Source of the DNA: Escherichia coli
GTDB taxonomy: Bacteria; Pseudomonadota; Gammaproteobacteria; Enterobacterales; Enterobacteriaceae
Length of the DNA: 64,000 nt
Direction: 5' to 3' (one strand)
NCBI RefSeq assembly: GCF_044324875.1
Contig: NZ_CP172185.1
A model generated the notes under the pieces. The model was not told the origin of the DNA and ran no database searches. It saw nothing but the letters and a program-made list of their open reading frames with translations. Within the stretch, counting starts at the first letter, position 1; every line of letters begins with the position of its first letter. Position numbers and translations under genes: made by a program. Positions 56,690 to 59,753 of the stretch are shown here, one piece after another.

Positions 56690-58958
56690 GTAGAGTAAGA
56701 GGCAGGGCGTAGTCGGACTATTTCCCTGCCTCTCCTCCCCGAACCGGACGTGCACCTTTCAGCGCATCCGGCTCTCCATTTAAATGCTGGCGAACGCCAT
56801 TGCCACTTCTGTAAAGCGCGATGTATACGTGTTTCTGGTCTCCGTCCTCAGATAGGGATTACCTTCGGGTAGCCGCCAGCGGAACAGCTTCTTGCCTTGC
56901 CCCACCAACCGGTACAGTATTTCGCCGCTGAGCTTGCCGTGATTGGTTTTACCAAATAAAACCCACGTTTTGCTCTGACCCGGTTTCGGTGATTTACACC
57001 ACCACCTCATCAGGGAAGCGATACCTGTACGGTATTTGCGGGCCAGCCAGTGAGCCAGCTTCCAGAACACGACACGGTCGATATAACTGAAGACTTTGGC
57101 CTTAAAATCAACGAACTGATAGAACATGGCCCAGCCTTTCAGTTTTCGGTTGAGTTGTTCAGCCATATCGACTTTGCTTTCACTGTAGTTGCCTGATAAC
57201 AGTGCTGTCAGCGATGCGGCGAAGTTTCTGGCTTTCTCCTGCGGGACGTTGAGACCACTCGCATCTCGCCATAACGACTGCGTTTGCGAATGATCCTGTG
57301 CCCCAGAAAGATAAAGCCGTCATTAACATGGGTGATTTTAGTCTTATCCATGTTCAGCCTGAGTTTCAGACTGCCTTCGAGCACACCCCGACACTCCTCC
57401 CTGATGGCTTCCGCCTGTGCTTTGGTGCCTTTGACGATGAGGACAAAATCATCGGCATAGCGGCAGTACGCCACCGCGGGTTTCCACTGCCAGTTTTCTC
57501 TGACCGCCGTACTTCGGCCCCGTTGGATACTGTTATTCCAGTACCACCGATCTTTTCTGGCTTTCCCGCTCAGGTAGCGCTCATGCAGGTATTGATCGAA
57601 CTCATTCAGCATGATGTTCGATAATAGCGGCGATATAACACCGCCCTGTGGCACACCTTCACTGGCCGCCCGAAAGAGACCGACATCGATATGTCCCGCC
57701 TTGATGGTTTTCCACAGCAGAGTCATGAAACGTGCGTCACTGATCCTGCGGCGTACAGCCTTCATCAGCAGTCGATGATGTACGGTGTCGAAGTAACTGG
57801 ACAGGTCGCCTTCAATCACCCAGCGTCCCCGGGTTTCACCACAGTCTGTGAGCTGTAATTTCACCGTGCGGATAGCGTGGTGGACACTGCGCTCAGGCCG
57901 GAAGCCATATGAGAGCGTATGAAAATCACTCTCCCATATCGGCTCCATCGCCATCAGCATGGCCCGCTGAACAATACGATCCCGCAACGTGGGGATACCC
58001 AGTGGTCGCAGTTTGCCGTTGCTTTTAGGGATGTAAACCCGTCTGGCGGGCAAGGGCTGGTAGTGGCCTGAGAGTAATTCATCCCTGAGGATTTGCAGCT
58101 CAACAGCCAGTCTGGCCTGTAGCATTATTTTGTTCACGCCATCAACGCCGGGGGTATGGGCCCCCTTTGATGAAAGCGTGATCCGCGCCGCTTCAGCCAG
58201 CCATTCTGGTTGTGTTATCAGACGCAGCAGCCGTTGAATCCGTAGGGACGGATCGGTGGCTGCCCATGTGGCAAGCTTGCGTTGCATTTCGCTGATTATC
58301 AAAGGTCTTCACCTCGTTAGGTCAGTTAATTCACGTCGCAAACACATTCAAACTGCTTCCCTTCGCCATGTAATGGGCTTTCCCCATCGCGGACTACTAC
58401 GGAAGCTCCGCCAGCCAGCGCGTCATCGGAGCCATGCCCCCTTAACATCCGTCGCTGACCTTCCCCGGTTTACCGGCCTGGACTCAGGCATACTGAGGAG
58501 GCTGCCCGTCGCACTCTTTATCCTTGCTTGCCGCAAGTTGGCAGAAGTCAGCAACGCAAGCGTGATAGACGCTGCTGCCCCGGTGTTTCGTATACATGTC
58601 AAAACACCTTCGACCGGCAGTGCTTACGTATCACTGCCAGTTCCTCCTGCACGGCCTGTCAGATCACGTAGGCCGTGGTGACGTTTTCAACCCACAGAGG
58701 CGGATTAACGGGTTCATGTTCTTCAGCCTTTCAGTACTTAACCTTGAGGATCATCTCGGCTTAGTGATCTCGCCTCAATCCCCGTTGTCAGCGGGTTACA
58801 TCACCCTGCGGGCATGCCGCAGGTCACTGCCGCTCAGGTTCTCCACCGTCACACCCGGTGGGATTGTTGGGTTTCTCATCGTGAGTTACCGGTTCAATAT
58901 TCCAGACAGACTCGCGGTTCATTTAAGCATCCATGCCCGCCCTGAACTCCGGGCACAC
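56690..58958 (-). mobile_element. group II intron (about 2.27 kb) with disrupted intron-encoded protein
   Basis: 5' end GTGTGCCCGG at 58958; domain V GAGCCGGATGCGCTGAAAGGTGCACGTCCGGTTC at 56774-56741; 3' end …CTAC at 56690; internal reverse transcriptase/maturase ORFs. Confidence 0.8.
56780..58302 (-). pseudogene. group II intron reverse transcriptase/maturase, frameshifted
   Basis: RT domains in the 364-aa ORF (57208-58302) and the maturase-like region in a separate 128-aa ORF (56780-57166) in another frame. Confidence 0.7.
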
Positions 58959-59753
58959 CGTAAGTAAAATCAGCCACCCACAACTGGTCAGGACGTTCTG
59001 CCACAAACTGACGGTTTACGCGGTCGCCTGCGGCAACGGCTTTCCGGCTGACGGTAGTGCGGACCTTTTTACCCCGGAGAACACCGGCAAGTCCCATAAC
59101 CGCCATGAGGCGCGCCACTGTACATCTGGCTACCCTGATTCCTTCCCGTAACAACTGACGCCAGACTTTACGCACACCGTATACCTGATGATTCCCATCG
59201 TATACGCGCAGTATCTCTTTCTTCAGCCAGTCATCGCGCTGCGCACGGGCACTGCGTTTATCCGGATGATGTCGCTGTTGCTGACAGTGGTAATACGTTG
59301 ACGGGGCAATATGTAGTTCACTGCATACCGGTCCGACCCCGTACAGCTTACGCAGCTTATCCAGCAGTGGCATCACTTTTTCCAGAGGCGGTCGAACTCC
59401 ACCTTCGCAAAATAAGCGGAAGCCTGGCGAAGGATATCGTTACTGCGGCGCAGTTCACGATTTTCACGTTCCAGCTCTTTCAGACGCTGACGTTCAGCGG
59501 TGGTGAGCCCGCCATCACCGCCTCCGGTATCCCGCTCATGCTGGCGCACCCAGACACGCAGAGTCTCCGGTGTACAGCCAATCTTTGGGGCAATGGAACA
59601 AATTGCCGCCCACTGTGAGTCATATTCGCCCTGACTTTCCAGAACCATACGAATCGCCCTCTGACGGACTTCGGGGGAAAAACGAGTATTTTTAGTCATT
59701 CTGTTTACCTCTTTCTCAGGGAGTTTAGTCTCCAGGATTCCCGGGGCGGTTCA
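58959..59753 (-). mobile_element. IS629 partial copy 5 (OrfA plus 5' part of orfB), 5' exon of the group II intron
   Basis: orfB reads …[10 protein letters not shown] then the intron begins one base later; IS end …CCCGGGGCGGTTCA at 59753. Confidence 0.85.

Follow-up and report, generated by a model that had tools for sequence, protein, structure and literature searches.

The E.c.I4 group II intron between IS629 and IS911-type exons in Escherichia coli: a hybrid most probably formed by recombination between intron copies

In a stretch of 64,000 nucleotides of Escherichia coli DNA (contig NZ_CP172185.1 of NCBI RefSeq assembly GCF_044324875.1; the whole stretch is called the window below), a group II intron identified by its sequence as E.c.I4 lies within a transposase gene whose upstream part belongs to the insertion sequence (IS) IS629 and whose downstream part belongs to an IS911-type element. 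We consider it very probable that this copy of E.c.I4 became an IS629/IS911 hybrid by recombination between intron copies and that it was later disabled by a 1-bp deletion in ltrA, the gene of its intron-encoded reverse transcriptase (RT)/maturase.

Results

Identity and boundaries of the intron

The full copy is 2269 nt long (intact copies are 2270 nt) and runs from 58958 to 56690 on the minus strand, beginning with GTGTGCCCGG and ending with CTCTTACTCTAC (longer reads: start GUGUGCCCGG, end CUCUUACUCUAC). Its ends, GUGUG...CUAC, agree with the group II consensus (5' GUGYG, 3' AY), and joining of the exons restores an in-frame orfB in both IS629 and IS911. The parts of the full copy and its exons are:

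58959..59753, minus strand: 5' exon, the left 795 bp of IS629 (left inverted repeat at 59753, orfA, ALIL, orfB to ...D-F-T-Y plus G), from the sequence and RF01497
56690..58958, minus strand: group II intron E.c.I4, bacterial class A, 2269 nt, assigned from its boundaries and near-identity to named copies
58623..58628, minus strand: exon-binding site 1 (EBS1), 5'-CGUAAG-3', intron nt 331-336, from the fold and covariation with the 5' exon
56780..58287, minus strand: ltrA (RT/maturase, domain IV), split in two frames (open reading frames 57208-58302 and 56780-57166)
between 57247 and 57246, minus strand: 1-bp deletion (A) in codon 348 of the 502-codon ltrA, located by alignment with other copies
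56690..56776, minus strand: domains V and VI, with the catalytic hairpin GAGCCGGAUGCGCUGAAAGGUGCACGUCCGGUUC and the branch-site helix (RF00029)
56202..56689, minus strand: 3' exon, 488 bp from the right side of an element of the IS911 group (...(V)WTGKRWAYL of an IS911/ISEc52-like orfB through to the right inverted repeat), from the sequence and annotated matches

The Rfam model RF00029 (domains V/VI) matched 56690-56776 on the minus strand at 64.9 bits (E = 7e-12, gathering score 40) over its full length (model positions 1-77), and the match stops exactly at the 3' splice site. The Rfam models D1-D4 gave no match to the intron at E <= 1, and therefore do not appear to cover the class of E.c.I4. 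A consensus fold of domains I-III by RNAalifold from 57 distinct relatives contained 27 helices, 82-100% paired, most of them with compensatory changes. The window contains the 18-nt intron start twice, where 0.01 occurrences would be expected, and the element is at least 99.6% identical to the full-length E. coli copies compared, which together exclude a chance origin. The K-12 annotation puts the small RNA EyeA (b4690) in the piece of domain I retained by the E.c.I4 remnant of prophage CP4-6 (L004, 4581-4655), and the EyeA sequence is also found in the window intron at ~58495-58569 on the minus strand (intron nt ~390-464).

Of 5,426 complete E. coli genomes, 2,668 (about half) have a match to the intron, mostly at 99% identity or more; matches at that level were found in 2,719 E. 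coli records, and the full-length copies from other genomes (n = 11) were all 2270 nt long. The copy of E. coli GF4 differs from that of the window by the 1-nt deletion only. In E. coli 55989 (locus L005) a 2270-nt intron lies at NC_011748 3366025-3368295, exactly the coordinates given for E.c.I4-3a in Table S3 of Leclercq and Cordaux 2012 (PMC3522654), and the window intron differs from it at 9 of 2270 positions (99.6% identity). Insertion of E.c.I4 into IS629, IS911, ISEc16 and ISEc31 was published in that paper, whose Table S2 states for E.c.I4-3a that "the IS host is a chimeric IS629/IS911" and for another copy "chimeric IS629/ISEc31". Since L005 has the exons of the window copy, IS629 5' and IS911 3', the hybrid arrangement reported here is correct but already known. 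Toro and Martinez-Abarca 2013 (PMC3552965) placed E.c.I4/S.f.I1 in bacterial class A, whose proteins lack an endonuclease domain. In our Pfam search of the intact protein only RVT_1 and GIIM were detected; no endonuclease domain was found by Pfam in the encoded protein, nor anything C-terminal of GIIM, which is consistent with class A.

Exons and junctions of the full copy

The IS629 5' exon ends ...GCTGATTTTACTTACG, i.e. ...GAT TTT ACT TAC G, immediately before the intron. It contains the ALIL -1 frameshift pseudoknot at 59302-59418 (RF01497, 111.7 bits), is collinear with the complete IS629 of E. coli MS 119-7 (L016) at 99.76% identity, and is ~99.5-99.8% identical to the four intact IS629 elements of the window, as judged through copies in other genomes that match both. 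The 3' exon starts TCTGGACGGGTAAG..., i.e. TC TGG ACG GGT AAG, and extends to an IS911-type inverted repeat that ends at 56202 and abuts the region upstream of hsdM. Its closest RefSeq-annotated matches belong to the ISEc52 family (98.6%) and the IS911 family (95.3%), and it shows 10 differences from the IS911 3' exon of L010. The joined exons of the window would read as an in-frame chimeric orfB, ...DFTY-V-WTGKRW....

The uninterrupted IS629 of the window reads GATTTTACTTACG TCAGC across the site. Four such empty, perfectly cognate homing sites (GATTTTACTTACG/TCAGC, the slash marking the insertion point) are present at 33149-33177, 42794-42822, 50108-50136 and 52305-52333, so that E.c.I4 occupies one of the five IS629 sites in the 64 kb. 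Junctions in IS629, IS911, ISEc31 and a fourth IS3-family gene all fall 1 nt after the codons of D-x-T-Y.

The initial annotation of this DNA, made from the letters alone, had described a group II intron whose two copies have their 5' junctions (58958 and 45164) one base after D(F/V)TY of an IS3-family orfB, with a downstream exon beginning TC and, in the full copy, an IS629 5' exon joined to an IS911-type 3' exon. These statements hold: the consensus ends and the RF00029 match support the intron, both junctions lie as described, TC opens the 3' exon (TC TGG...) as it does the corresponding part of the uninterrupted IS629 (TCAGC), and exon comparison confirmed both halves of the hybrid. Two of the checks proposed with it also came out in its favour, as the covariance-model search of 56690-58958 on the minus strand located the domain V/VI structure, and the junctions coincide with the published position of E.c.I4 insertion in IS3-like transposase genes.

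Origin of the hybrid

Five observations argue for recombination between intron copies; two of them, the failure to find an empty chimeric target or a target-site duplication, are given below with the rival readings. Of the other three, first, the reciprocal hybrid, IS911(5')-intron-IS629(3'), was found at 100% coverage in at least 25 records, with its junctions verified. Second, E. coli strains Z217-2 (L011) and M217 (L122) are 99.7% identical from the left flank through the IS911 5' exon and all of the intron, and split exactly at the intron 3' end, where Z217-2 continues with an IS911 3' exon and M217 with an IS629 3' exon and a different flank. The two loci are a natural before/after (parental/recombinant) pair of an intron-mediated rearrangement. 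Third, the five hybrids that were examined (window, GF4, a plasmid of enterotoxigenic E. coli (ETEC), 55989 and strain 210205630) contain two variants of the IS629 5' exon (~6% apart) and three of the IS911 3' exon (4-6% apart) in four combinations, which fits repeated exchange and not one chimeric ancestor.

The initial annotation had offered two origins, recombination between two intron copies or retrohoming into a chimeric target. The former gains from the reciprocal hybrids, the parental pair and the mixed variants, and the latter loses because no empty chimera was found in the 5,426 genomes. Insertion of the intron into a pre-existing IS629/IS911 chimera, itself made by illegitimate or short-homology recombination in the conserved D-x-T-Y region, now appears highly improbable. 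The two elements do have ~28 nt of partial similarity around the site, across which BLAST extends, and such a target would retain the cognate intron-binding site 1 (IBS1) and U(+1). However, a 300-nt synthetic query for the junction without intron, made of 150 nt of the IS629 5' exon and 150 nt of the IS911 3' exon, was matched contiguously in none of the 5,426 genomes, yet the intron-bearing hybrid is common; both reciprocal hybrids exist, the four exon-variant combinations would demand four independent chimeric targets, and M217 and Z217-2 share the intron and break at its boundary.

The single two-piece match to the intron-less query was L016, at the same locus as in the window, where positions 855-2210 hold a complete IS629, then the last 45 nt of the intron (window 56690-56734), and then the IS911 3' exon. 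This locus is the product of an IS629 landing in domain VI, followed by recombination with the IS629 5' exon that deleted the remainder of the intron.

We also see very little probability in a single ancient chimeric IS, with an IS629 left end and an IS911 right end, that transposes as a unit. The hybrid does have exact IS ends at 59753 and 56202 and does occur in unrelated contexts (a CFA/I plasmid of ETEC, the hsdM island and SHI-1 in strain 55989). Several findings speak against such a unit: no 3-4 bp target-site duplication was found in the flanks of the two contexts checked (TTC vs TCT in the window, CAC vs GTC in L003), the exon variants are up to 6% apart and combine non-congruently among the hybrids, and the terminal repeats come from different IS elements around an interrupted transposase gene. 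The hybrid was therefore rejected as a functional chimeric IS, which would have a target-site duplication and matched terminal repeats.

An assembly or sequencing artefact behind the hybrid arrangement, the frameshift or both is scarcely credible. In its favour, a 2.27-kb near-identical repeat is a classic source of misjoins, collapse of two intron copies onto each other would account for the hybrid and a single-base indel error for the frameshift, and the 1-bp deletion has no counterpart in the other E. coli records. However, the same hybrid with its flanks recurs in many independently assembled complete genomes and plasmids and the deletion lies outside a homopolymer run, so that the artefact reading is left for the deletion only.

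Recombination between intron copies would have taken place before the present genome arose. The IS629/intron/IS911/hsdM block of the window is collinear with that of E. coli GF4 (99.9% over 7.3 kb) and is also present in an mcr-1 plasmid and in at least 25 other E. coli chromosomes, and being so widespread next to hsdM the hybrid predates this genome and was not made in it. In a survey of exons at the best-matching place of each of 60 records, evenly spaced among 8,233 matching records, the full hybrid was seen in 2, an IS629 5' exon followed by a different 3' exon in 10, and IS911 on both sides in 3. The 354-kb plasmid of E. coli PN43 (NZ_MG591698.1, L121) carries raffinose/sucrose genes, a porin, the hybrid intron and the type I restriction-modification (R-M) island together, a few kb from ISApl1 and mcr-1.1.

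The ltrA frameshift

The initial annotation had the RT/maturase reading frame in two pieces, and this is what we find. The first frame keeps the RT domain (Pfam RVT_1, aa 86-332), and the second has the maturase domain GIIM (domain X, aa 356-421) together with the C-terminus. The two pieces score 301.3 and 19.7 bits with TIGR04416, against 341.9 bits for an intact homologue. The frameshift had been placed at 57166-57208, which is merely the gap between the two open reading frames; the true site is 57247/57246, ~40-80 nt upstream, where AACGATCCCG of the intact copies has become AACG-TCCCG in the window. The missing base is not part of a homopolymer run (AACG/TCCC). Among the 2,661 E. coli records with this 61-nt segment, none carried the deletion allele.

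The intron RNA of the window is probably still competent for splicing, as its ribozyme parts match the intact annotated GF4 copy, the deletion being the only change. Group II introns need their maturase, and splicing and retrohoming fail in its absence unless an intact copy gives the protein. On this established basis, the window copy should neither splice nor retrohome without protein supplied in trans by an intact E.c.I4. That four cognate IS629 sites of the window stand empty is consistent with such inactivity, but is no proof of it.

Relatives in other species and target recognition

Relatives were found by a scan of one genome per species with a 21-nt motif at the domain IV/start-codon region (window 58288-58308, minus strand), a motif that E.c.I4 has in common with relatives from Salmonella (84% identity) and Burkholderia (68%). 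The scan gave 100 loci (L021-L120) in ~85 species, spanning Alpha- and Gammaproteobacteria, with single loci in Nitrospira, planctomycete, Hydrogenedentota and Bacillota genomes. A tblastn search with the Burkholderia intron-encoded protein gave matches dominated by E.c.I4 itself. Among the relatives, 59 of 60 readable 5' junctions lay one base after D-x-(T/S)-(Y/F) in rve-type DDE transposase genes (DITY 27, DFTY 14). In the one exception, L117, the intron start had been called off by one; its 5' exon ends ...GACATTACCTACT (D-I-T-Y plus one base), and thus all 60 fit. The reconstructed exons of the relatives read through as transposases.

Within E. coli no divergent relatives suitable for covariation were found, the copies being either at least 99% identical or 76-nt fragments on pO157-type plasmids. 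The E. coli copies were thus too uniform to choose between EBS1 candidates, and the relatives from other species were needed. The sequence CGUAAG, in the 9-nt terminal loop of the hairpin 322-326/338-342, can form 6/6 pairs with the IS629 IBS1 (CUUACG) and 4/6 pairs with IS911, ISEc31 and another IS3-family host; IS911 (CCUAUA) has its mismatches at -1 and -5. In 50 distinct pairings of intron and exon, the hexamer of this loop makes 235 base pairs in all with the end of its own 5' exon, compared with 214.1 +/- 4.4 for shuffled pairs, a value reached in 0 of 20,000 shuffles. Compensatory changes between EBS1 and exon occur at -1, -2, -3, -5 and -6, and all five pairs of the hairpin stem show compensatory changes as well. 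On this covariation we take EBS1 to be CGUAAG, with IS629 as the predicted cognate target and IS911, ISEc31 and the fourth IS3-family host as near-cognate homologous sites. An A(-1) facing C is common across the family, and this mismatch therefore appears to be tolerated. In the loops inspected, an A (nt 330) stands immediately 5' of EBS1, and 22 of 23 relatives have U as the first base of the 3' exon, which would fit a probable delta-delta'-type pair between A at nt 330 and U(+1).

A rival EBS1 at nt 263-269 (UGUGGGU), which can pair with both IS629 and IS911 by way of G-U wobbles, was rejected because it is conserved whatever the exon and shows no covariation (213 pairs vs 214.2 +/- 2.4 shuffled). 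An EBS2 common to the targets was sought by complementarity and none was identified.

It is possible, although we would put it forward only tentatively, that the E.c.I4 lineage is a large cross-phylum family (putative class A) specialised on the D-x-T-Y(I/V/L) codons at the first catalytic Asp of rve/DDE transposases, with EBS1 retuned for each host IS and with copies bridging recombination between unrelated IS halves. Class A was represented by three near-identical members in 2013 and was regarded as very rare (PMC3552965), and a 2020 survey counted two such introns in 1,435 genomes. No description of a family-wide D-x-T-Y specialisation was found in the literature searched, a search that did not extend to the 2002 papers and the intron database. 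If new, such a family would illustrate cleanly how a protein motif conserved in other mobile elements can define the target of a retroelement.

The truncated second copy and its surroundings

The second copy lies downstream of hsdR and consists of:

45165..45309, minus strand: 5' exon, an IS911-group orfB fragment ending ...V-W-C-G-D-V-T-Y plus A (from the sequence)
45006..45164, minus strand: truncated intron, nt 1-159 of E.c.I4 (from the sequence)
43600..45005, minus strand: IS911A-like left end with IS30 in orfA, which cuts the intron fragment and is itself cut by an IS629 at 43601 (from the K-12 match)

Its junction reads ...GGTGATGTGACCTATA/GTGTGCCCGG at 45165/45164, the exon ending ...GAT GTG ACC TAT A, and the exon together with the intron start is 94.7% identical to the IS911A counterpart of K-12. 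At the homologous position downstream of hsdR, plasmid pB379_2 carries the complete intron (2270 nt) flanked on either side by IS911 exons, and this, together with the break at IS911A::IS30 in the window, marks the fragment as a normal IS911 insertion destroyed by later IS traffic. A normal insertion into IS911 downstream of hsdR would thus have been cut at intron nt 159 by an incoming IS911A::IS30. The latter, at 43600..45005, is 99.6% identical over 1406 bp to the IS911A::IS30A of CP4-6 in K-12, indicating that the nested pair travels as a unit between genomes.

Between the two copies, a pair of IS629 elements in inverted orientation (49604-50914, minus strand, and 51527-52836, plus strand; region 49604-52836) interrupts hsdS, the specificity gene of the type I R-M system. 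The 612 bp between them are an hsdS target-recognition fragment on the strand opposite to hsdM and hsdR, an arrangement that suggests an IS629-mediated inversion inside the gene. Another type of IS is indicated by a match to RF00124 (IS102 RNA, Rfam) at 12845-13041 on the minus strand (88 bits).

Discussion

We propose that the top strand of IS3-family transposase genes would be the target of E.c.I4 retrohoming, which would take place at the codons of the first catalytic Asp and one base past D-x-T-Y, with the choice of target set largely by pairing of the EBS1 loop (5'-CGUAAG) with the last six exon bases. IS629 (CUUACG/U) would be a perfect match and IS911-type elements (CCUAUA/U) near-cognate. 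Copies more than 99.5% identical over 2.27 kb could then act as portable homology, so that exchange between an IS629-resident and an IS911-resident copy would give the IS629(5')-intron-IS911(3') hybrid. One base of ltrA would have been lost after the hybrid had formed, leaving an RT fragment without its maturase domain, and the window copy would be immobile and unspliced without protein provided in trans by an intact one. The sequence comparisons show the anatomy of the element, its identity with E.c.I4, EBS1 (by covariation), the lack of intron-less chimeras in the genomes searched, the existence of reciprocal products and a parental/recombinant pair at one locus; that the exchange was homologous and of RecA type, that the events came in this order and that activity was lost is inferred.

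Several points weigh against this account. Mapping of the crossover by single-nucleotide polymorphisms proved impossible, because the 12 full-length copies have 24 variable sites in total, differ from one another at no more than 10 positions and carry no lineage-specific markers. Among the matches listed, none had upstream of hsdM an IS911::intron allele that could be the parent, and the event behind the window hybrid is therefore argued by analogy with M217/Z217-2. The ltrA deletion, seen in this sequence alone, may be private to it or may be a sequencing error. Finally, splicing, retrohoming and the effects of the mismatches at -1 and -5 are predictions from sequence.

A 2.3-kb intron that is more than 99.5% identical in hundreds of IS copies amounts to a long homology able to join unrelated IS elements and to rearrange islands and plasmids; the locus of the window adjoins a type I R-M island and raffinose/sucrose genes, and a related plasmid carries mcr-1. 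For annotation, what appears as split "IS3 family transposase" pseudogenes beside a frameshifted ltrA is one nested element with a known name and history.

Among known systems, RmInt1 of Sinorhizobium meliloti (class D, in ISRm2011-2) is likewise an endonuclease-less intron that homes into an IS transposase gene, with targeting dominated by EBS/IBS pairing and with related IS elements as alternative targets. RmInt1 differs from E.c.I4 in the class of its protein and in its RNA structure, and its target is not the D-x-T-Y catalytic motif. The closest system is E.c.I4 (= S.f.I1) of Escherichia coli/Shigella itself, reportedly first described by Dai and Zimmerly in 2002, which has the 2270-nt architecture, the endonuclease-less RT/maturase and the IS629/IS911 insertion position found in the window. 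In contrast to the reference copies, the window copy has only its private 1-bp ltrA deletion and at most five point differences, and while E.c.I4-3a lies by pic in SHI-1, the window copy lies upstream of an intact type I R-M island. The truncated copy of the window can be compared with E.c.I4-tr1 (the ykfC fragment in prophage CP4-6 of K-12), which is the same intron in IS911A; E.c.I4-tr1 keeps intron nt 1-1764 and is cut by IS5, whereas the window fragment keeps nt 1-159 only, and IS911A::IS30, the upstream host of the intron in K-12, is found downstream of the intron fragment in the window.

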